Assembly (NCBI RefSeq): GCF_988242995.1
Contig: NZ_OZ547043.1
DNA length: 64,000 bases
Strand: one strand, 5' to 3'
How positions within the stretch are numbered: the first letter of the stretch is position 1; every line of letters starts with the position of its first letter. The notes beneath the pieces were generated by a model. The model was not told where the DNA came from and searched no databases. It saw only the letters and a list, made by a program, of their open reading frames with translations. Below are positions 9,079 to 35,800 of this stretch, one piece after another. Both the position numbers and the translations under genes were made by a program.

Positions 9079-12000
9079 ATGAGCGGAAAACCGGCGGCGC
9101 GACAGGGCGATATGACCCGCAAGGGACTGGATATTGTGCAGGGTTCAGCGGGGGTGCTGATAGGTGCGCCGACGGGAGTGGCCTGCTCGGTGTGTCCCAA
9201 CAGCCCGGTGGAGGAGCAGAAGGGTAACCCGGTGAACCCGCTACTGGGTGCGAAGGTGCTGCCGGGCGAGACGGATCTTGCGCTGCCCGGCCCGTTGCCG
9301 TTTATTCTTTCCCGCGCCTACAGCAGCTACCGGACCAGGACACCCGCGCCGGTGGGGGTGTTTGGTCCCGGCTGGAAAGCGCCCTTCGATATCCGCTTAC
9401 AGGTTCATGAGCGGGAACTGATACTCAACGACAGTGGCGGCAGGAGCATTCACTTTGAGCCGCTGTTTCCCGGCGAGATAAGCTACAGCCGCAGCGAGTC
9501 GTTCTGGCTGGCAAGGGGCGGGGTGGCGGAGCAGCACAGTTCGCAGCCGCTAAGCGCGCTCTGGCAGGTGCTGCCGGAGAGTCTCCGCTTAAGCCCGCAT
9601 GTGTACCTGGCGACAAACAGCCTTCAGGGGCCGTGGTGGATACTCGGCTGGCCGGAGCGGGTACCGGAGGCGGACGAGGTGCTGCCGCCGGAGCCGCCCG
9701 CATACCGGGTGCTGACGGGCGTGGTGGACGGCTTCGGGCGGACGCTGGCCTTCCACCGGGCGGCAGAGGGGGAAGCGGCGGGCGCGGTGACGGGGGTGAC
9801 GGACGGCGCGGGCCGCCGTTTTCATCTGGCGCTGACCACACAGGCGCAGCGGGCGAAAGCCTTCCGTAAACAGCGCGAGTCTTCTTTATCTTCTCCGGCC
9901 AGTCCCCGTTCTGTTTCCTCTTCTCAGTTTTTCCCCGACACGCTGCCCACCGGTACAGAGTACGGTGCCGATAACGGTATCCGGCTGGAGGCGGTATGGC
10001 TGACACACGACCCGGCATACCCGGATGAACTGCCGACTGCGCCGCTGGCGCGCTACACGTACACGGCCAGCGGAGAACTGCGGGCGGTGTATGACCGCAG
10101 CGGTACGCAGGTGCGCGGGTTTACTTATGATGCGGAGCACGCCGGGCGGATGGTGGCGCACCATTATGCGGGGAGGCCGGAGAGCCGCTACCGGTATGAT
10201 GATACCGGTCGGGTGACGGAGCAGGTCAACCCGGAGGGGCTGGACTACCGCTTTGAGTACGGGCAGGACCGCGTGACCATCACGGACAGCCTGAACCGGC
10301 GGGAGGTGCTGTACACGGAGGGCGAGGGCGGCCTGAAGCGGGTGGTGAAGAAGGAGTATGGGGACGGGAGCATCACCCGCAGCGAGTATGATGAGGCGGG
10401 GAGGCTGAAGGCGCAGACGGATGCGGCGGGACGGCGGACGGAGTACCGGCTGCATATGGCGTCGGGAAAGCTGACTTCAGTGATACTGCCGGACGGCAGG
10501 ACGGTACGGTATGGTTACAACAACCAGTTGCAACTGACGTCAGTGACGTACCCGGACGGGCTGCGCCGCAGCCGGAAATATGACCGTCAGGGCAGGCTGG
10601 CGGAAGAGGTCTCGCGCAACGGTAACATTACGCGCTGGTTTTATGATTCTTCCCGCAGTGGCCTGCCCTGTGCGGTGGAAGACGGAACCGGGGTGAGGCG
10701 GAGAATAACGCGAAACCGGTACGGTCAGCTTCAGGCATTTACGGACTGTTCAGGGTACACGACGCGGTATGAATACGACCGGTACGGTCAGAGGACGGCG
10801 GTTCACCGGGAGGAAGGCATCAGCACTTACAGCAGTTATAACCCGCGTGGTCAACTGGTCAGTCAGAAGGATGCGCAGGGACGTGAAACCCGTTATGAGT
10901 ACAGCGCCGCAGGCGACCTCACCGCTATCATTGCCCCGAACGGCAGCCGGAGTGAGACACAGTATGATGCGTGGGGAAAGGCCGTCAGCACCACGCAGGG
11001 CGGACTGACGCGCAGCATGGAGTATGACGCCGCCGGGAGCATCACCGTGCTGACCAACGAGAACGGCAGCCAGTCCACGTTCCGGTATGACCCGGTGGAC
11101 AGGCTGACGGAGCAGCGCGGCTTTGACGGCAGGACACAGCGTTACCGGTACAGCGCCACAGGGCAGCTCATCCGCAGCGAGGATGAGGGGCAGGTCACGC
11201 AGTGGTACTACGATGACGCCGGGCGCATCACGCACCGGACGGTGAACGGCGACCCGGCGGAGCAGTGGCAGTATGACGACCACGGCTGGCTGACAGAAAT
11301 CAGCCACCTGAGCGAAGGCCACCGTGTGGCGGTCCACTACGGCTATGACGATAAAGGCCGCCTGACGGGCGAACGGCAGACGGTGGAGAACCAGGAGACG
11401 GGGGAGATGCTGTGGGAGCATGAGACGAGGCACGTCTACAGCGAACAGGGGCTGGCGACCCGTCAGGAGCCGGACGGTCTGCCGCCGGTGGAGTGGCTGA
11501 CGTATGGCAGCGGTTATCTTGCGGGGATGAAGCTGGGCGGAACGCCGCTGGTCGAGTACACGCGGGACCGGCTGCACCGTGAGACGGCCCGCAGCTTCGG
11601 CGGGGCGGGCAGTACAGCGGGGTACGAACAGGCCACGGCGTACACCCTCACAGGGCAGCTCCGGAGCAGGCACCTGAACCTTCCGCAGCTTGACCGTGAG
11701 TATACGTGGAACGATAACGGGCAACTGGTGCGCATCAGCGGCCCGCAGGAGAGCCGGAAGTACCGTTACAGCGACACGGGAAGACTGACGGGCGTTCACA
11801 CCACGGCGGCGAACCTGGATATCGATATCCCGTATGCGACGGACCCGGCAGGAAACCGGCTGCCGGACCCGGAACTGCACCCGGACAGCACCTTCACGGC
11901 GTGGCCGGATAACCGCATCACGGAAGATGCGCACTATGTCTACCGCTACGATGAATACGGCAGGCTGGCGGAGAAGACGGACCGTATCCCGGAAGGGGTG

Positions 12001-13290
12001 ATACGGATGCACGACGAGCGGACGCACCACTACCATTACGACAGCCAGCACCGCCTGGTGTTCTACACGCGGATACAGCACGGCGAGCCACAGGTGGAGA
12101 GCCGCTACCTCTATGACCCGCTGGGCCGCCGGACGGGGAAACGGGTGTGGCGGCGGGAGCGTGACCTGACGGGGTGGATGTCGCTGTCGCGTAAACCGGA
12201 GGAGACCTGGTACGGGTGGGACGGTGACAGGCTGACGACGGTACAGACCGGCACCACGCGTATCCAGACGGTATACCAGCCGGGGAGCTTCACGCCGCTC
12301 ATCAGAATCGAAACAGAGAATGGTGAACAGGCGAAGGCGCGGCACCGGAGTCTGGCGGAGGTGTTGCAGGAGGACACGGGGGTGACGCTACCGGCGGAGC
12401 TGTCGGTGATGCTGGGGAGGCTGGAGCGGGAACTGCGCGCGGGTGCGGTGAGTGCGGAGAGTGAGGCATGGCTTCAGCAGTGCGGGCTGACGGCGGAACA
12501 GATGAAAAACCAGATGGAGGCGGAATACATCCCGGAGAGGACACTTCATCTTTACCACTGCGACCACCGGGGGCTGCCGCAGGCGCTCATCAGCCCGGAA
12601 GGGGAAACGGCGTGGCAGGGGGAGTATGACGAGTGGGGAAACCTGCTGGGCGAAACCAGCGCGCAGCAACTGCAACAGCCGTACCGTCTGCCGGGGCAGC
12701 AGTATGATGAGGAGTCGGGGCTGTACTATAACCGCAACCGGTACTATGACCCGTTGCAGGGGCGGTATATCACCCAGGATCCCATTGGGCTAAGAGGTGC
12801 ATGGAACCTGTATCAGTATCCATTGAATCCAACTACTAAGATAGATCCGTTGGGTCTCTCCGGAGAAGATTCCATAGAGCAGTCAGGTCCATCTTGGTTG
12901 ATTGCTGACCCCATGGATAAATACAGACAACAGGCAGTGATGGGTTTAACAAAATTGTGGGATGATACCTTTAGTCAAGAGAAGACTAAATGTTTACCTA
13001 CGACACCTGAAAACATCAGGATGGTTGTGGCCAACAGTCCCTTGTTGACAGTACAACAAAAAGTCTCAGTACCCGTAGTAGCTCACTACGTACAAATGCT
13101 GGAAGATGGTAGTGGAGCACCACCGGTTGATATGGATGGGAATGTGATTGTTAATGGTAATCACAGGATGGTTGCGGGTCTGTTATGTGATAAACTTCCT
13201 CCTGAGCGGCCAGGTACGCGTCCATTATCGGCACCACTATATCCGTTTAGCCAAATTTTTCCGGAGTTAGATGATTGGGGGAATAGATGA
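9079..13290 (+). CDS. rhsE: Rhs-family protein: YD-repeat core with a variable C-terminal toxin domain
   Basis: 1403-aa ORF starting [13 protein letters not shown]…; many YD/RHS repeats (…[12 protein letters not shown]…, …YEYDRYGQ…); core ends with the canonical …[31 protein letters not shown] (DPLGL at 12844-12858), followed by ~143 aa of unrelated AT-rich sequence; RBS aagga upstream. Confidence 0.9.
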
Positions 13291-13772
13291 TAAGAATCGC
13301 GTTTTTAATAACCAATAAATTTCTTGATATAGATAGTACCACTCTTGCTGGATATGATTTTAGCGGGATGGATCTACATCGTGCCATCCTCAATGGTTAT
13401 TGTCTTGATGGGGCGAAATTTGAAAATTCCCATTTAAGAAATGTAATGATTCAACATACATCAACTAGAAATGCTGTCTTTCGCAATGCGGCTCTGATGA
13501 ACGCTATTCTTAATAACTCAGATTTCACTGGAAGTGACTTTAGTAATTCAAGGTCAATAGGTGCAAACTTTGAGGGTGCTATATTAACTAATTCAACCTT
13601 TTGCAATGCAGACGTTAAAGATTCAAATTTTTCTGGTGCTGACTTATGTGGCGCTAATTTATTATGTGATAGATATGGCGATATAAATATAACAGGTGCA
13701 TTATTCGATAAAAACACCTCATGGTTAGAAGGTTTTGATCCTATAGCTCATGGGGCTATATTAAAAATATGA
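13287..13772 (+). CDS. ydcD: Pentapeptide-repeat protein, probable Rhs immunity protein
   Basis: 161-aa ORF whose ATG overlaps the rhsE stop (ATGA at 13287-13290); tandem A(D/N)LXX-type repeats (…[64 protein letters not shown]…); AT-rich like the rhsE tip. Confidence 0.75.
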
Positions 13773-14100
13773 CAAGGATCATAACTCATTATTTTCTGTG
13801 TCAGTAACACTGATGTGGAAAGTAGACTTACTTGCAATAGCCACCGGGATCTGCTGTTGAAAGCCGATCCCAAACAACCCCGGTTGCTGTGGTAAAGAGT
13901 CATAGTAGCGAGCGCAGGGGGAGTGCTCAGATTATATGAGATACAGTGAAATGAATAAACCCGAACCTGTGTTGACGTGTCGTTAGTCCTAAGCGGCATC
14001 AGAACCGGAGGTTTCGTGATACCGCCGTGATAAATTTACGGGTGAATTCCGAATGCTACGTAAAGGGTGTCCGGCGTATAGCAGACATCAGGATAAAAGT

Positions 14101-15494
14101 ATGAAAGCCCACGCCCCACAAGGCTTTACCGGATGATGAGTTTTTAAACTACGACATTACTTTTACAGTAAAATCCATCATGTTGGTATTTTCTCTCGAA
14201 CAATTTGACGATCCACGGAAAGATCACGTAACGCTGCTTTTTTGTACTAGACAATTCGCATTTTATGTTTAACAATTGAGATATTCCTCATTACCTGAAG
14301 CTGTTTTTTATTGCGTATACATGATCAAATACTCCTTACATAATTAAGGAGAACAAAATGGAACTTAAAAAATTGATGGAACATATTTCTATTATCCCCG
14401 ATTACAGACAAGCCTGGAAAGTGGAACATAAATTTTCGGATATTCTACTGTTGACTATTTGTGCCGTTATTTCGGGTGCAGAAGGCTGGGAAGATATAGA
14501 GGATTTTGGGGAAACACATCTCGATTTTTTGAAGCAATATGGTGATTTTGATAATGGTATTCCTGTTCACGATACCATTGCCAGAGTTGTATCCTGTATC
14601 AGTCCTGCAAAATTTCACGAGTGCTTTATTAACTGGATGCGTGACTGCCATTCTTCAGATGATAAAGACGTCATCGCAATTGATGGAAAAACACTCCGGC
14701 ATTCTTATGACAAGAGTCGCCGCAAGGGAGCGATTCATGTCATTAGTGCGTTCTCAACAATGCACAGTCTGGTTATCGGACAGATCAGGACGGATGAGAA
14801 ATCCAATGAGATTACAGCTATTCCAGAACTTCTTAACATGCTGGATATTAAAGGAAAAATCATCACAACTGATGCGATGGGTTGCCAGAAAGATATTGCA
14901 GAGAAGATACAAAAACAGGGCGGTGATTATTTATTCGCTGTAAAAGGAAACCAGGGGCGGCTAAATAAAGCCTTCGAGGAAAAATTTCCGCTGAAAGAAT
15001 TAAATAATCCAGAGCATGACAGTTACGCAATTAGTGAAAAGAGTCACGGCAGAGAAGAAATCCGTCTTCACATTGTTTGCGATGTCCCTGATGAACTTAT
15101 TGATTTCACGTTTGAATGGAAAGGTCTGAAGAAATTATGCGTGGCAGTCTCCTTTCGGTCAATAATAGCAGAACAAAAGAAAGAGCCAGAAATGACGGTC
15201 AGATATTATATCAGTTCTGCTGATTTAACCGCAGAGAAGTTCGCCACAGCAATCCGAAACCACTGGCACGTGGAGAATAAGCTGCACTGGCGTCTGGACG
15301 TGGTAATGAATGAAGACGACTGCAAAATAAGAAGAGGAAATGCAGCAGAATTATTTTCAGGGATACGGCACATGGCTATTAATATTTTAACGAATGATAA
15401 GATATTTAAGGCAGGGTTAAGACGTAAGATGCGAAAAGCAGCCATGGACAGAAACTACCTGGCGTCAGTCCTTGCTGGGTGCGGGCTTTCGTAA
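14101..15494 (+). mobile_element. H-repeat (ISAs1-family) element, copy 2, approximate boundaries
   Basis: Leader 14101-14215 matches the copy-1 leader (atgaaagccc(g/a)cgccccacaag…cgacattacttttа-like block …caatttgac); the 3' end gcgggctttcg at 15481-15491 is inverted relative to the 5' end; contains an intact transposase ORF. Confidence 0.5.
14358..15494 (+). CDS. ydcC: H-repeat-associated protein (ISAs1-family DDE transposase), intact
   Basis: 378-aa ORF; DDE-type transposase features; paralogous to the interrupted ORF at 7521..8657; RBS aaggag upstream. Confidence 0.85.
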
Positions 15495-15539
15495 TCTTGC
15501 CCTGCGCCAAAGATTCCATATAATAATATTAAGGTTGTT

Positions 15540-16175
15540 ATGAATAAAGGTAATAGATTACAACAGTTAGAAGATGCGTGTCGTGATATTATTAAAATTA
15601 ACATGTGGTATGAACTCCCCGATTATGTATTTTTTTCAATATCTGACACCATCGATGGGACGAGTGATGAATTTGCAATAAATGTGTATAAAAATATCGA
15701 TAAAAGTCTTCTTGAAATATTATTGCATCCATCTGTTTTACTGTCAGTTGTTGAGTCCTTACAAAGTAATACTATAGCTGAGTATATCGTGAAATTGTCT
15801 GGAATAGAGATGAATTATGACGACTTGCTAATATCGGATGTTAAGTCATGTCTTTTTATCAACTATGGATTCAATAACAGTGAATCGGTTGCGCTATTTA
15901 ATAAGATTTGCCGCGAATTAAAAGACATTGTAAAATCATCAAGAGTACATATAGATCATGAGAAAGATATTTTTGATGGCCTTAATCAAATCTTGGCTTT
16001 TTCCGATAATAATAAACGTGAGTATTTTTTATATATAAAGGCATATTGGCTCAGTTTATACTTTTGTGAAATTTCACAGAACGTGAGAGAAAGAGATAAG
16101 TTGTCATTTTATTATAATGAATTTTCTGTCCGATTTCCTAATGTTGTCCTATATCCGTCATGCTACAAATTGTAA
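15540..16175 (+). CDS. Hypothetical protein (AT-rich orphan ORF next to the Rhs/H-rpt region)
   Basis: 211-aa ORF with an ATG start and aagg 5 nt upstream; very AT-rich; no family recognisable by eye; lies immediately 3' of the H-rpt element. Confidence 0.5.
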   Translation: MNKGNRLQQLEDACRDIIKINMWYELPDYVFFSISDTIDGTSDEFAINVYKNIDKSLLEILLHPSVLLSVVESLQSNTIAEYIVKLSGIEMNYDDLLISDVKSCLFINYGFNNSESVALFNKICRELKDIVKSSRVHIDHEKDIFDGLNQILAFSDNNKREYFLYIKAYWLSLYFCEISQNVRERDKLSFYYNEFSVRFPNVVLYPSCYKL

Positions 16176-16566
16176 GGCTTGGCACCTGAAATTCATTGTT
16201 AATTCGAGACGCTTGATTGTCCACTATATCAAAACAGTCATACCTCGGAATTTCTCACATTAGTCCATACGGTATTCAATTTTCGCAACTGTGCCCTGAA
16301 ATAAAAAACTGCAAAACTGCTTTTTCTTGACCTGTCCCAATCACGCAAGACTACTTTTAGTAGAGACCTCCAGCCATATCGATTTTAGTGCCGCCCGCGC
16401 ATTTTATACAAAACAGGGCTTTATCAATGAAGCTATAATACGCAATTACTATGATGTTGGTGAGGATAAATTAATCTTCACTAAAAATATGCAATCGTGA
16501 GATAAAATATGCTTTTAACTCATATTGAAACATTGCTTACGCAACTTCGTTGCTGCATATGATTCT

Positions 16567-17136
16567 TTAGCCAGCGGTAATACGCTTGCCGCTGGTAACA
16601 AACGTGCCAGCACCTAAATGATGCAACGTATTGAGTTTGTCATCATCAAACTGCCAGCGGCCTTCGACAAATACTCGTGCGTCTGCCGCTGCTGATACTA
16701 CCTCGCCAAACAGTGTGTCGTATTTTTCTTGCGCAGAAGTCGCAGGTAGCAGGCGACACTCCATCCACGCCAGACATTTTTCCTCGACCAGCGGCAAACC
16801 AAGCACCGGGCCTCTCACTACCGGAATGCCGTAGCAATTAAATTTATCTTCTTCACGCCCCGACACACTTCCCACCGCCCACGTCCAGTTAGTTGCTGCA
16901 ACACCCGGGATAACGATGCCAAACTTACCATTACGTTCAATCAACTCCCTGGTCCATGTCGATTTATCTACCACAATCGCCACGCGTGGCGGTTCAAACT
17001 CCACCGGCATTGACCAGGCTGCTGCCATAATGTTACGCCGCTGGGATTGCTCATCGAAACTGGTGATCATGACAGTTGGGCCATGATTTAACAGACGGCT
17101 GGCATGGTGTAATTCGACGGGAATGAATTGGCTCAC
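16567..17136 (-). CDS. yddH: Flavin reductase-like domain protein
   Basis: 189-aa ORF; apparent GTG start with gagg RBS; flavin-reductase-like fold features (…PTVMITSFDEQSQRRNIMAAAWSMPVEFEPPRVAIVVDK…). Confidence 0.7.
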   Translation of the reverse strand: MSQFIPVELHHASRLLNHGPTVMITSFDEQSQRRNIMAAAWSMPVEFEPPRVAIVVDKSTWTRELIERNGKFGIVIPGVAATNWTWAVGSVSGREEDKFNCYGIPVVRGPVLGLPLVEEKCLAWMECRLLPATSAQEKYDTLFGEVVSAAADARVFVEGRWQFDDDKLNTLHHLGAGTFVTSGKRITAG

Positions 17137-30407: not shown

Positions 30408-31508
30408 TTAGAACTGATAGGTAATGCCCGTTGCGACGATGTTATCGGTGCGAATATCTACGGCACGGGTAAAGTCGCTTTCATCAATCAGGTTGATTTT
30501 ATAATCAACATAGGTCGACATATTTTTGTTGAAGAAATACGTCGCACCAACGTCGATATACTCAATCATGTCCTGGTCGCCGTAGCGGCCCAGATCTCTG
30601 CCTTTCGATTTCAGGTAAGCGAGTGATGGGCGCAAGCCGAAGTCGAATTGATATTGTGCCACTACTTCAAAACTTTGTGCTTTGTTAGAGATATAACCAT
30701 CGCCATAGGTGGTCATGTTTAATGTTTCAGCGTAATTAGCTGCAAAGTAGATGTTGTTGGCATCATATTTTATACCTGTAGCCCACAGTTCTGCATTCTT
30801 ACCGGAGGCATTGAGAGGATTAGCAGCGGCTCTTTCCTGCGCATTTGTCCGATCGGATTTGGTATACACCGCACCGATACCAAAGCCATCATAAACATAA
30901 GTTGAGGAGATACCGAAACCGTCACCATTGGCACGCGTGTAGTCAGCACCATAAAGATGACCATTGTCAGTGCGTTCATTTTTGCCTTGATATTGCGCGG
31001 CAAAGTTCAGACCTTCAATTAAGCCGAAGAAATCGTAGTTGCGATAGGTTGCCACACCGGTAGTACGGTATGTCATGAAGACATCTTTCTGACTCCAGGT
31101 ATCGCCACCAAATTCTGGCAACATATCGGTCCATGAACCAATGTCATAGCCGACACCGTAGTTACGACCATAGTCCAGAGAGCCAAATTCACTAATTTTT
31201 AAACCTGCATAGGCCAGACGGGTCTTGTTACCGCGCGAGCCGTTGGCTTCATCGTTATAGCCTTTAAAATCATATTCCCAGTGACCAAAACCAATCATTT
31301 GATCATTGATTTGCGTTTCTCCTTTAAAGCCGAGACGGGCATAAGTTTTATCACCATCGTCACGCTTATCATCAGTAAAATAACGTAGAGCGGTAACCTT
31401 GCCATAAAGGTCGAGTTTATTACCATCCTTGTTATAGACTTCGGCAGCGTGTGCTACGTTCGCAGCTAACAAACCAGTTACAACCACCGCAACTATTTTT
31501 AATTTCAT
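30408..31508 (-). CDS. yddL: General porin of the OmpC/OmpF/OmpN family, apparently intact
   Basis: 366-aa ORF with signal peptide [21 protein letters not shown], then [17 protein letters not shown]… and the C-terminal …GITYQF typical of enterobacterial 16-strand porins. Confidence 0.8.
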
Positions 31509-31766
31509 TTAACAGAATCCTTTTAATTATCGTTAAACGTATTTTCTAAACGAATTTTAAACGGCGTCATTTATAAATGACATACTGTTTTTAAAATAGA
31601 ATGGTGATTAAAAACAATGAGAAAAATAGATGAAATAATATTATTTATCGATATGTGATCGAAGTCGAAATGAGATATAAGGTGAACTACTGGTATTTGA
31701 AATTTATTTTTTTATATTGTCGGAATTTATCTGATTAACTGCCGGGCCGTAGACCCGACAATTATT

Positions 31767-32648
31767 TTAGCCACGACGTGTCGCCAGCCAGCAGAGCAGG
31801 GAACCGCCGCAGACCATTAGCGCGCCTTGCCAGAACGAGAACGACAGCGGGGCGCTGAGCAGCACGGCTGCAAGCGCTGAGGAAAGGACGGGCGTAAAAT
31901 ACGAACCTACCGCCATAATGGTGACGTTGCCATGTAATATACCGACGTTCCATGCAGCATAAGCAAATCCTAAGGTAAATGCCGCAGAGGTGAGTTTAAT
32001 CATGACGGGCGTGCTAAATACCATTTCTGGTTGTGGCGTGAGAAAATAGTAAACCCACAGACTTGCTCCCGTTAGTAGGACAAAAACGGTAATTCCGTTA
32101 AATCCGCGTGCGTATTTATTCGTTACTGTGCAATAGGCTGCCCAGATAAACGCACCAATAAACGCCAGGAAATAACTCAATGGGCTGGTGGTGATATTAT
32201 TGATGATTTCATCATAATGTAACCCATTGTCACCACCTAACACCCAGCAGACGCCAACCAGGGCTAATAATAATCCTGGTACAATCAGCCAGTTGGTTTT
32301 CTGACCATTAAACAGAATGGCAAAGAGAATTGTCAGGCTGGGCCACAGATAGTTCACCATACCCACTTCAATCGCCTGATGACGGGTCGCCGCATATCCT
32401 AAGGAAAGCGCCAGACAGATTTCATAGCTGACGAATAACAGACACCCGGCGAGTAAATAGCCTTTCGGGATCTGCCGAATACGCGGAAATCCAACCGTGA
32501 AGATTAACAGCAGCCCGCTTAATGAATAGATAGCAGCTGCACCGCCGACCGGGCCGAGCCCCTCACTGACACCGCGAATCAATCCTACCATCGTGCTCCA
32601 CAGGACGATCGCTATTAGCCCTATGAGCGTTGCTTTTTGTCGTGTCAT
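31767..32648 (-). CDS. yddG: Aromatic amino acid exporter (DMT/EamA family)
   Basis: 293-aa ORF with ten predicted transmembrane segments; divergent from fdnG. Confidence 0.85.
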   Translation of the reverse strand: MTRQKATLIGLIAIVLWSTMVGLIRGVSEGLGPVGGAAAIYSLSGLLLIFTVGFPRIRQIPKGYLLAGCLLFVSYEICLALSLGYAATRHQAIEVGMVNYLWPSLTILFAILFNGQKTNWLIVPGLLLALVGVCWVLGGDNGLHYDEIINNITTSPLSYFLAFIGAFIWAAYCTVTNKYARGFNGITVFVLLTGASLWVYYFLTPQPEMVFSTPVMIKLTSAAFTLGFAYAAWNVGILHGNVTIMAVGSYFTPVLSSALAAVLLSAPLSFSFWQGALMVCGGSLLCWLATRRG

Positions 32649-32719
32649 GCTCGCTGTTTTGTCTCTCTTGCCGTTAAAAATTAAGCTGAATTTTATAGCA
32701 TTTTTTTAACTGGCCTGTC

Positions 32720-32875
32720 AGGCAGTGGTGCGTTTTTCTACCGCTATTGAGGTAGGTCAATTTGCGCAGGCGGATTATTTTGTGGCAAACACGTGTTCTT
32801 TTTGATTTCGCGCAAAAAGATTCAGAATTTTACTGTTAGTTTCCTCGCGCAGTAATACCCCTGAAAAAAGAGGAA
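32720..32875 (+). promoter_or_regulatory. fdnG promoter region with candidate NarL heptamers and an FNR-like half-site
   Basis: TACCCCT and TACCGCT heptamers (NarL consensus TACYYMT) and TTGATttcgCGCAA resembling the FNR TTGAT-N4-ATCAA site upstream of the fdnG ATG; assignment rests on known fdnG regulation. Confidence 0.4.
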
Positions 32876-32879
32876 AGCA

Positions 32880-35800
32880 ATGGACGTCAGTCGCAGACAA
32901 TTTTTTAAAATCTGCGCGGGCGGTATGGCTGGAACAACGGTAGCGGCATTGGGCTTTGCCCCGAAGCAAGCACTGGCTCAGGCGCGAAACTATAAATTAT
33001 TACGCGCGAAAGAGATCCGTAACACCTGCACATACTGTTCCGTAGGTTGCGGGCTATTGATGTATAGCCTGGGTGATGGCGCGAAAAACGCCAGAGAAGC
33101 GATTTATCACATTGAAGGTGACCCGGATCATCCGGTAAGCCGTGGTGCGCTGTGCCCGAAAGGGGCCGGTTTGCTGGATTACGTCAACAGCGAAAACCGT
33201 CTGCGCTACCCGGAATATCGTGCGCCAGGTTCTGACAAATGGCAGCGCATTAGCTGGGATGAAGCATTCTCCCGTATTGCGAAGCTGATGAAAGCTGACC
33301 GTGACGCTAACTTTATTGAAAAGAACGAGCAGGGCGTAACGGTAAACCGTTGGCTTTCTACCGGTATGCTGTGTGCCTCCGGTGCCAGCAACGAAACCGG
33401 GATGCTGACTCAAAAATTTGCCCGCTCCCTCGGGATGCTGGCGGTAGACAACCAGGCGCGCGTCTGACACGGACCAACGGTAGCAAGTCTTGCTCCAACA
33501 TTTGGTCGCGGTGCGATGACCAACCACTGGGTGGATATCAAAAACGCTAACGTCGTAATGGTAATGGGCGGTAACGCTGCTGAAGCGCATCCCGTCGGTT
33601 TCCGCTGGGCGATGGAAGCGAAAAACAACAACGATGCAACCTTGATCGTTGTCGATCCCCGTTTTACGCGTACCGCTTCTGTAGCGGATATTTACGCACC
33701 TATTCGTTCCGGTACGGACATTACGTTCCTGTCTGGCGTTTTGCGCTACCTGATCGAAAACAACAAAATCAATGCCGAATACGTTAAGCATTACACCAAT
33801 GCCAGCCTGCTGGTGCGTGATGATTTTGCTTTCGAAGACGGTCTGTTCAGCGGCTACGACGCTGAAAAACGCCAGTACGATAAATCGTCCTGGAACTATC
33901 AGTTCGATGAAAACGGCTATGCGAAACGCGATGAAACACTGACTCATCCGCGCTGTGTGTGGAACTTGCTGAAAGAGCACGTTTCCCGCTACACGCCGGA
34001 CGTCGTTGAAAACATCTGCGGTACGCCAAAAGCAGACTTCCTGAAAGTGTGTGAAGTGCTGGCCTCCACCAGCGCGCCGGATCGCACAACCACCTTCCTG
34101 TACGCGCTGGGCTGGACGCAGCACACCGTGGGTGCGCAGAACATCCGCACCATGGCGATGATCCAATTGCTGCTCGGTAACATGGGTATGGCTGGTGGCG
34201 GCGTGAACGCATTGCGTGGTCACTCCAACATTCAGGGCCTGACCGACTTAGGTCTGCTCTCAACCAGCCTGCCGGGTTATCTGACGCTGCCGTCAGAAAA
34301 ACAGGTTGATTTGCAGTCGTATCTGGAAGCGAATACGCCGAAAGCGACGCTGGCTGATCAGGTGAACTACTGGAGCAACTATCCGAAGTTCTTCGTTAGC
34401 CTGATGAAATCTTTCTACGGTGATGCTGCACAGAAAGAGAACAACTGGGGCTATGACTGGCTGCCGAAGTGGGACCAGACCTACGACGTCATCAAGTATT
34501 TCAACATGATGGATGAAGGCAAAGTCACCGGTTATTTCTGCCAGGGCTTTAACCCGGTTGCGTCCTTCCCGGACAAAAACAAAGTGGTGAGCTGCCTGAG
34601 CAAGCTGAAGTACATGGTGGTTATCGATCCGCTGGTGACTGAAACCTCTACCTTCTGGCAGAACCACGGCGAGTCGAACGATGTCGATCCGGCGTCCATT
34701 CAGACTGAAGTATTCCGTCTGCCTTCGACCTGCTTTGCTGAAGAAGATGGTTCTATTGCTAACTCCGGTCGCTGGTTGCAGTGGCACTGGAAAGGTCAGG
34801 ACGCGCCGGGCGAAGCGCGTAACGACGGCGAAATTCTGGCGGGTATCTACCATCATCTGCGCGAGCTGTACCAGGCCGAAGGTGGTAAAGGCGTAGAACC
34901 GCTGATGAAGATGAGCTGGAACTACAAGCAGCCGCACGAACCGCAATCTGACGAAGTAGCTAAAGAGAACAACGGCTACGCGCTGGAAGATCTCTATGAT
35001 GCCAATGGCGTGCTGATTGCGAAGAAAGGTCAGTTGCTGAGTAGCTTTGCGCATCTGCGTGATGACGGTACAACCGCATCTTCTTGCTGGATCTACACCG
35101 GTAGCTGGACAGAGCAGGGCAACCAGATGGCTAACCGCGATAACTCCGACCCGTCCGGTCTGGGGAATACGCTGGGATGGGCCTGGGCGTGGCCGCTCAA
35201 CCGTCGCGTACTCTACAACCGTGCTTCGGCGGATATCAACGGTAAACCGTGGGATCCGAAACGGATGCTGATCCAGTGGAACGGCAGCAAGTGGACGGGT
35301 AACGATATTCCGGACTTCGGCAATGCCGCGCCAGGTACACCAACCGGACCGTTTATCATGCAGCCGGAAGGGATGGGACGCCTGTTTGCCATCAACAAAA
35401 TGGCGGAAGGTCCGTTCCCGGAACACTACGAGCCAATCGAAACGCCGCTGGGCACTAACCCGCTGCATCCGAACGTGGTGTCTAACCCGGTTGTTCGTCT
35501 GTATGAACAAGACGCGCTGCGGATGGGTAAAAAAGAGCAGTTCCCGTATGTGGGTACGACCTATCGTCTGACCGAGCACTTCCACACCTGGACCAAGCAC
35601 GCGTTGCTCAACGCAATTGCTCAGCCGGAACAGTTTGTGGAAATCAGCGAAACGCTGGCGGCGGCGAAAGGCATTAATAATGGCGATCGTGTCACTGTCT
35701 CAAGCAAGCGTGGCTTTATCCGCGCGGTGGCGGTGGTAACGCGCCGTCTGAAACCGCTGAATGTAAACGGTCAGCAGGTTGAAACGGTGGGTATTCCAAT

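Follow-up and report, generated by a model that had tools for sequence, protein, structure and literature searches.

An intact Rhs toxin–immunity module at the rhsE site of Escherichia coli, set apart from its usual vgrG

Tse5 (PA2684, also named RhsP1) of Pseudomonas aeruginosa is a proven effector of the H1 type VI secretion system (T6SS), carried on VgrG1c/VgrG4, and its gene adjoins a vgrG, which we take to be PA2685. The protein cleaves itself near the N-terminus between K47 and P48, at PVNPMLG, and its residues 1-29 are disordered in the cryo-EM map (PMC10684867). The gene considered here occupies positions 9079..13290 (+ strand) of a 64,000-nucleotide stretch of contig NZ_OZ547043.1 (RefSeq assembly GCF_988242995.1; the whole stretch is called the window) and encodes a full-length Rhs polymorphic toxin of 1403 residues laid out like Tse5: a PAAR-like fragment of ~47-50 residues, the motif PVNP(L/M)LG(A/S)K, a DUF6531 plug, a YD shell, a C-terminal autocleavage site and a small toxin. 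The toxins themselves differ, Tse5 being pore-forming and countered by a membrane immunity protein, whereas the tip of the window Rhs is a soluble domain of ParB/sulfiredoxin fold with a pentapeptide-repeat immunity protein; the literal letters P-A-A-R are present in the window Rhs and not in Tse5, and, unlike tse5, the window gene has no vgrG nearby. We consider it probable, though well short of certain, that the window holds a functional-looking Rhs toxin–immunity module of the T6SS kind, seated at the rhsE site, uncoupled from its usual vgrG and served by the T6SS encoded at aspV. The unusual point of the locus is the loss of the vgrG that at this very site normally stands before rhs, and a preliminary description of this DNA missed it.

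Within E. coli, the rhs gene of the aspV cluster (position 1 of Jackson et al., 2009) resembles the window gene in 89.9% nucleotide identity over a 3.75-kb core, in 39 of 40 N-terminal residues and in an ISAs1 element downstream; it differs in lying at another site ~1.3 Mb away, in adjoining hcp/vgrG, in its tip and immunity gene, and in the linker that joins the PAAR-like repeat to the plug. The canonical rhsE unit (yncH–vgrG–rhs–ydcD), together with its K-12 remnant b1456, shares with the window gene the site, the family and the downstream ISAs1 (H-repeat), whereas the cores are 73% identical in amino acids and 81% in nucleotides, the N-terminus is of another type, the window tip and immunity gene are not of the ydcD type, and in the window yncH and vgrG are missing and an ISAs1 pseudogene stands upstream. 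For the tip, the closest described class is that of the predicted ParB-domain toxins (Tox-ParB), with a DGHHR motif, RHS and haemagglutinin carriers, and the partners Imm20, Imm27 and Imm-SuFu (Zhang et al., 2012; PMC3482391). The window tip agrees with it in its C-terminal position, in RHS and filamentous-haemagglutinin carriers, in the ParB/sulfiredoxin fold and in a D-G-[NH]-H-R motif; unlike Tox-ParB, it is recognised by no Pfam model, has a pentapeptide-repeat protein rather than Imm20, Imm27 or Imm-SuFu as partner, and belongs to a family with an additional invariant Thr and Gln upstream of the motif.

The rhs gene is a single open reading frame (ORF) of 1403 codons and a stop, without interruption; by our own estimate, at ~64% G+C, a stop-free run of this length would arise by chance with p ~1e-16. 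The NCBIfam model NF041261, “RHS element core protein,” scores 2510 bits (cut-off 2000) and aligns residues 1-1260 with model positions 1-1261, and this full-length match, with the translation, bears out the earlier statement that the ORF is uninterrupted. It is a genuine gene and no chance ORF, and the long antisense ORFs opposite it are of the kind that G+C-rich coding DNA usually produces. Its first 50 residues (9079..9228, + strand) comprise the PAAR-like repeat (residues 2-29) and a cysteine-containing linker, CSVCP, and form a predicted VgrG-docking fragment, by profile alignment to PDB sequences and by analogy with the N-terminal fragment of Tse5. The N-terminal plug follows (PF20148, DUF6531, residues 49-126, E 6e-18; 9223..9456, +), its start corresponding to the site of N-terminal cleavage in Tse5, and then the G+C-rich shell of YD/RHS repeats (9457..12624, +), with 11 RHS_repeat matches (E <= 0.001) and a match to TIGR01643 (E 2e-48). 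The Rhs-associated core, or C-terminal autoprotease plug (12625..12858, +; TIGR03696 at residues 1183-1260, E 1.4e-22; PF03527 at residues 1157-1191), ends at residues 1248-1260 in a demarcation motif of the PxxxxDPxGL type (DPLGL). The variable toxin tip (residues 1261-1403; 12859..13287, +) consists of a 40-residue linker and a domain of ~100 residues (12979-13287), and the immunity gene (13287..13772, +), encoding a pentapeptide-repeat protein of 161 residues, starts in an ATGA that overlaps the rhs stop by 4 nt. The G+C content is 59-68% over the rhs core and drops to 34-44% from position 13000, through the tip and downstream of it; a G+C-rich core, an AT-rich tip, a small immunity ORF and an ISAs1 nearby make up the classical profile of an Rhs element.

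Rhs paralogues are repetitive and often misassembled, and many database entries of the family are partial, so that an artefact of sequencing or assembly, or a silent pseudogene with its defect outside the ORF, had to be considered. We regard this as very improbable: the identical 1403-residue protein is held at NCBI as “RHS element core protein [Escherichia coli]” and was called on 22 independent contigs, and the tip and immunity gene recur with 100% identity in 143 of 5426 complete E. coli genomes, which carry the same gene. The toxin–immunity pair that the window carries at the rhsE site is of an ordinary E. coli Rhs kind and had been catalogued before.

The assignment to that site follows from the flanks, which are ~96% identical to K-12 MG1655 on both sides, with pqqU, yncE, ansP and a yncG remnant upstream and yddH, nhoA, yddE and narVWYZ downstream; Jackson et al. 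(2009; PMC2935791) number this position locus 6. In MG1655, rhsE (b1456) is annotated as a pseudogene of 2049 bp, followed by ydcD; the preliminary description was right that it is defective in K-12. Its further suggestion, that an intact copy would be strain-specific, does not hold. Strains T16R and ERL05-1306 have the order yncG–yncH–(0.8 kb)–vgrG (702 residues)–rhs (1400-1407 residues)–immunity gene–ISAs1–pptA, and a vgrG–rhs pair at the yncG–pptA site was found in 2717 of the 5426 complete genomes when these were queried with site-specific intergenic DNA, vgrG and the 5′ end of rhs (at least 80% covered), while the K-12-type 5′ deletion junction was found in 505; non-pseudogene rhs genes at the rhsE site have already been published for E. 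coli W, B and Crooks (PMC3032704). Nor are all rhsE alleles intact, since truncated ones of the K-12 type exist. An intact Rhs at this site is the common state and the K-12 truncation the minority, and the finding as first noted, a catalogued toxin gene in a species where intact copies are the rule, matters little.

The same comparison shows how the K-12 allele arose. Because b1456 matches the 3′ 2 kb of the full-length T16R rhs at 98.2% identity, the K-12 allele is a deletion derivative, without vgrG and without the 5′ 2.2 kb of rhs, of a unit that half of E. coli genomes have kept. A conserved 752-bp stretch of intergenic DNA after yncH (positions 9154-9905 of the K-12 locus) leads directly into the middle of rhsE in K-12 and is followed by vgrG in most genomes, which pinpoints the deletion.

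In the window, neither yncH nor vgrG is present at the rhsE site, and an ISAs1 pseudogene and a leader of 421 bp stand 5′ of rhs. The pseudogene (7521..8657, +), of an ISAs1-family transposase (NF033564, E 2.6e-87) with an in-frame stop at 7797-7799, takes the place that yncH and vgrG have in other strains; it is 100% identical to the copy in NZ_CP042899, the chromosome of strain CFSAN061763, where it is annotated “ISAs1 family transposase, internal stop” and where the chromosomal flanks are ~98% identical. The AT-rich leader (8658..9078, +; 33% G+C) is covered in 143 genomes only, those with this allele, and other rhs loci match from ~10 bp 5′ of the ATG. A search for a vgrG remnant 5′ of the window rhs found none, and the leader does not resemble the junction between vgrG and rhs at three loci, L005 (CFSAN061763), L008 and L009. 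At its right limit the conserved module is bounded by an intact ISAs1-family transposase gene (H-repeat, ydcC-like; 14358..15494, +; NF033564, E 5e-125), 96.8% identical to K-12 ydcC.

The core of the window rhs is 80.8-81.6% identical in nucleotides to K-12 rhsE, 76.7% to rhsD and 72.1% to rhsA, and the 89.9% identity to the aspV-linked rhs is the same in CFSAN061763 and in a second strain, XJ6.1. The N-terminus gives the same picture: the 39 identical residues of 40 are shared with the rhs that adjoins vgrG in the aspV cluster, whereas the canonical rhsE-site Rhs and K-12 RhsA and RhsD begin with MTQYGG(P/S)IVQGSAGVR, unlike the window type. The name rhsE given in the preliminary description therefore stands for the chromosomal position, fixed by the flanks on both sides, and not for the core: at 80.8% identity, compared with the 98.2% between b1456 and T16R, the window rhs is rhsE by position and belongs to another core lineage than K-12 rhsE.

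Between the window and CFSAN061763 the module at 7521-14357 differs by 5 nt in 6.8 kb (99.93% identity), the chromosomal flanks are 97.7-98.25% identical, and identity to NZ_CP042899 falls from 99.8% to 91.7% at the start of the downstream ISAs1. A near-identical module in flanks diverged by ~2% suggests a recent horizontal exchange of the ISAs1-bounded module between lineages. Most likely, the module derives from the rhs lineage of the aspV cluster and came to the rhsE site, by relocation or by recombination, with no vgrG. That the two flanking ISAs1 elements recently made up a composite transposon was considered and rejected: the two copies are different family members on visual comparison of their translations, and the upstream one is also only 67-70% identical to ISEc1 in CFSAN061763 (locus L005).

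A complete aspV T6SS is present ~1.3 Mb from the allele in both complete genomes sampled, CFSAN061763 and XJ6.1. In each cluster the vgrG, which encodes the same protein in both (WP_001550647.1), precedes an rhs whose N-terminus matches the window type; this cluster rhs is frameshifted in CFSAN061763 (11232-15732 of locus L005), so that the rhsE-site copy is the intact one there, and it is intact, at 1499 residues, in XJ6.1 (29861-34360 of locus L013). Where the aspV unit differs from the rhsE-site unit in the C-terminal tail of VgrG, it differs also in the N-terminal type of Rhs; with two types only, this is weak evidence that VgrG and Rhs may be specifically paired. No PAAR gene is annotated in the T6SS cluster of CFSAN061763, and neither of the two hypothetical proteins encoded there matches Pfam PAAR. 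Judged by these sequences, delivery of the window Rhs by a distant T6SS appears likely, and a natural Rhs effector split from its spike gene, with the docking segment kept, offers a convenient system for the determinants of VgrG–Rhs pairing. Some carriers of the allele have two Rhs proteins of the same N-terminal docking type, and others have the rhsE-site copy only.

Residues 1261-1403 match no Pfam family and no PDB sequence. A word-indexed protein search with the tip returned two short fragments only, clustering of Rhs proteins by their core hiding the tips; an exhaustive search of 1.84 billion cluster representatives returned 329 tip homologues at E <= 1e-3. In all of them the homologous part is the very C-terminal end of the carrier protein; among the carriers are Rhs/YD proteins of several phyla as well as CdiA-like filamentous haemagglutinins. 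The ~100-residue domain has the consensus ...VS.P.VQ.YV..IE.G...PPIKVDGN.IVDGNHRY.AGLLC...DWGNR, with invariant T, Q, G, H and R at T1309, Q1326, G1360, H1362 and R1363 of the window protein; its motif, DGNHRY in the family consensus and NGNHRM in the window, aligns with GCHRY of sulfiredoxin. This domain is a ParB/sulfiredoxin fold that is absent from Pfam: neither the tip nor any of 36 members of its family matches a Pfam model, ParBc included, at E <= 0.001. PADLOC defence models likewise give no match for the tip, the immunity protein, the N-terminal 50 residues or a 211-residue ORF further downstream.

Sixteen NCBIfam families, mostly of pentapeptide-repeat proteins, match the 161-residue partner with E 2e-14 to 1e-3, all below their family-specific cut-offs; RefSeq names the product “pentapeptide repeat-containing protein” (WP_000618048.1), and its homologue at locus L012 carries PF13599 and PF00805. 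Homologues of the immunity protein (38-45% identity, E 1e-30 to 1e-44) are encoded 3′ of three divergent toxins of the family, with a 4-nt overlap in each case, so that the pairing is conserved across all four loci compared, the window included. These searches define an uncurated family of ParB/sulfiredoxin-fold toxins that numbers 329 cluster representatives or more and has a pentapeptide-repeat protein as its conserved partner. Pentapeptide-repeat proteins such as MfpA and Qnr are mimics of DNA, and because of this mimicry the activity of the toxin would, by analogy, most likely be directed at DNA. It is possible, though we hold it doubtful, that this is the first ParB/sulfiredoxin-fold interbacterial toxin with a dedicated, DNA-mimicking pentapeptide-repeat inhibitor, the pair being spread over Rhs (T6SS) and CdiA-like (type V secretion system) carriers and the toxin acting on DNA by the NTP-dependent phosphotransfer of its superfamily rather than by plain hydrolysis. 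The accessible part of the text of Zhang et al. (2012; PMC3482391) does not contain the word “pentapeptide,” and published work on pentapeptide-repeat proteins at T6SS loci deals with the accessory proteins TagA/TagB and TseG rather than with protection from a ParB-fold toxin. The toxin and its partner make a small, testable lead.

The immunity gene also occurs apart from the toxin: degraded copies are found downstream of rhsA in 132 complete genomes without the toxin, and most of the 143 toxin-carrying genomes have a second place that matches the tip–immunity query. At the rhsA site of E. coli SCU-102 (12117-12401 of locus L003), degraded fragments of the gene (~95% identity over 320 bp) lie among orphan Rhs tips and immunity genes.

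Under the preferred reading, the N-terminal fragment of ~50 residues would dock on the VgrG of the aspV cluster, the same spike serving the paralogous rhs, and the YD-repeat shell would enclose the C-terminal toxin. Autoproteolysis after DPLGL, and probably also before P51, would free the fragments. In the target cell the ParB/sulfiredoxin-fold domain would then act through its phosphate-binding motif, G-x-H-R, with DNA or a nucleotide as the most likely substrate, and the co-translated pentapeptide-repeat protein would block the toxin in the producer. Expression, secretion, the VgrG used and the biochemistry of the toxin are each things that we infer.

Several results weigh against this reading. 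In tblastn searches of the 64-kb window, 15 proteins of an E. coli T6SS cluster gave no match at E <= 1e-3, and Hcp and VgrG gave chance matches only (E >= 0.6). The preliminary description had reported the absence of vgrG, hcp and tss genes, and its corollary is accepted with it: any delivery relies on a distant locus. In the canonical arrangement rhs starts 66 bp after vgrG, and a consensus scan of the 421-bp leader found no sigma-70-like site on the + strand, so that expression of the window rhs is only predicted. No complete genome in the collection reproduces the full arrangement of the window, over the interval compared (12700-16700), and the highest core-genome identity among them is 98.7%. 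We know of no demonstration of nuclease activity for a ParB-fold toxin, and in the literature searched the term Tox-ParB was found in Zhang et al. (2012) only.

Further points on the same side concern the N-terminus. The PAAR model of Pfam, PF05488, gave no match on residues 1-1200 even at E <= 10. In a PDB sequence search with a profile built from residues 1-130 and their homologues, residues 2-29 aligned with the last PAAR repeat of SalCis10 (9rce_c, 71-98 of 99, E 5e-4) and, at marginal scores, of VCA0105 (4jiv_D, 67-93 of 93, E 0.25), Tas1 (E 0.87) and Tre23 (E 2.5), with a sub-threshold stretch only for RhsA (7q97); the alignment was placed at the C-terminal end of the PAAR domain in all five chains. 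The similarity is thus short (~28 residues) and marginal (E 5e-4 to 2.5), and the ~48 residues ahead of the DUF6531 plug leave room for a single repeat, compared with the three of the PAAR cone, which one repeat alone is insufficient to form. By its sequence, the N-terminus of the window Rhs appears to be one PAAR-like repeat, a Cys-containing linker and the plug motif, and to fall outside the PAAR domain family. Of the PAAR-like N-terminus first described there remain, then, some 28 residues resembling the last repeat, with no PF05488 match and a single repeat only; by precedent the label “PAAR-like” is defensible. To cap a VgrG trimer, the single repeat might have to form a homotrimer or to join a second partial PAAR. 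Residues 48-146, from the plug onwards, match the shell of Tse5 (8cp6_B) from its first residue, with E 1.4e-13, and also RhsA of P. protegens.

The missing spike gene bears most directly on the main rival, that the module is stranded: export would have been lost with vgrG, and the genes kept for immunity against neighbours, as recombination stock of tips and immunity genes, or as an intracellular pair resembling a toxin–antitoxin system. The leader without a promoter-like site fits this, as does the absence of a linked vgrG; the degraded copies at the rhsA site in the 132 genomes show that immunity genes of the family circulate alone, exchange of tips between loci has been described (Jackson et al., 2009; PMC2935791), and Salmonella Rhs elements are reported to act as type II toxin–antitoxin-like modules (PMC7043789). 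Yet the whole 4.2-kb ORF is intact, with 99.93% conservation and one amino-acid change between lineages with ~2% diverged flanks, the N-terminal docking segment has been kept and matches that of the T6SS-linked paralogue, and both sampled carrier genomes possess a T6SS. We therefore rate a stranded module as rather unlikely, if the most serious competitor to delivery by the aspV system.

K-12 is not known to have a T6SS, and it has four annotated non-pseudogene rhs genes. If a strain without the system keeps its rhs genes, an intact rhs is no proof of T6SS use, which again counts against delivery by the aspV system, and on this ground one may think of a role independent of T6SS or of another export route, for example surface or carbohydrate binding as once proposed for the Rhs proteins of K-12. 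We find this improbable for the window gene: on direct reading its N-terminus is not signal peptide-like; the PAAR-like fragment, DUF6531 plug, shell, DPLGL motif, tip and overlapping immunity gene all match effectors of the Tse5 type; and its nearest paralogue is physically linked to hcp–vgrG.

Two other regions of the window were noted. At 15505-16566, pptA, which abuts yddH in K-12, is missing, and an AT-rich segment is found there instead, with the ORF of 211 residues (15540-16175, +) mentioned above; the ORF has no NCBIfam match, is named “aminopeptidase” at NCBI, and the order ydcC–ORF–yddH is found in a few complete genomes as well (WL297, 2013C-4282 and EC42405). Between narU and yddG, positions 27660-31508 (− strand), which we take to be the yddK/yddL region, encode tandem leucine-rich-repeat proteins of 417 and 420 residues, adjoining an OmpC-family porin of 365 residues; they show weak matches to SlrP/internalin leucine-rich repeats (E 1e-9 to 1e-10), and the genes are apparently intact.

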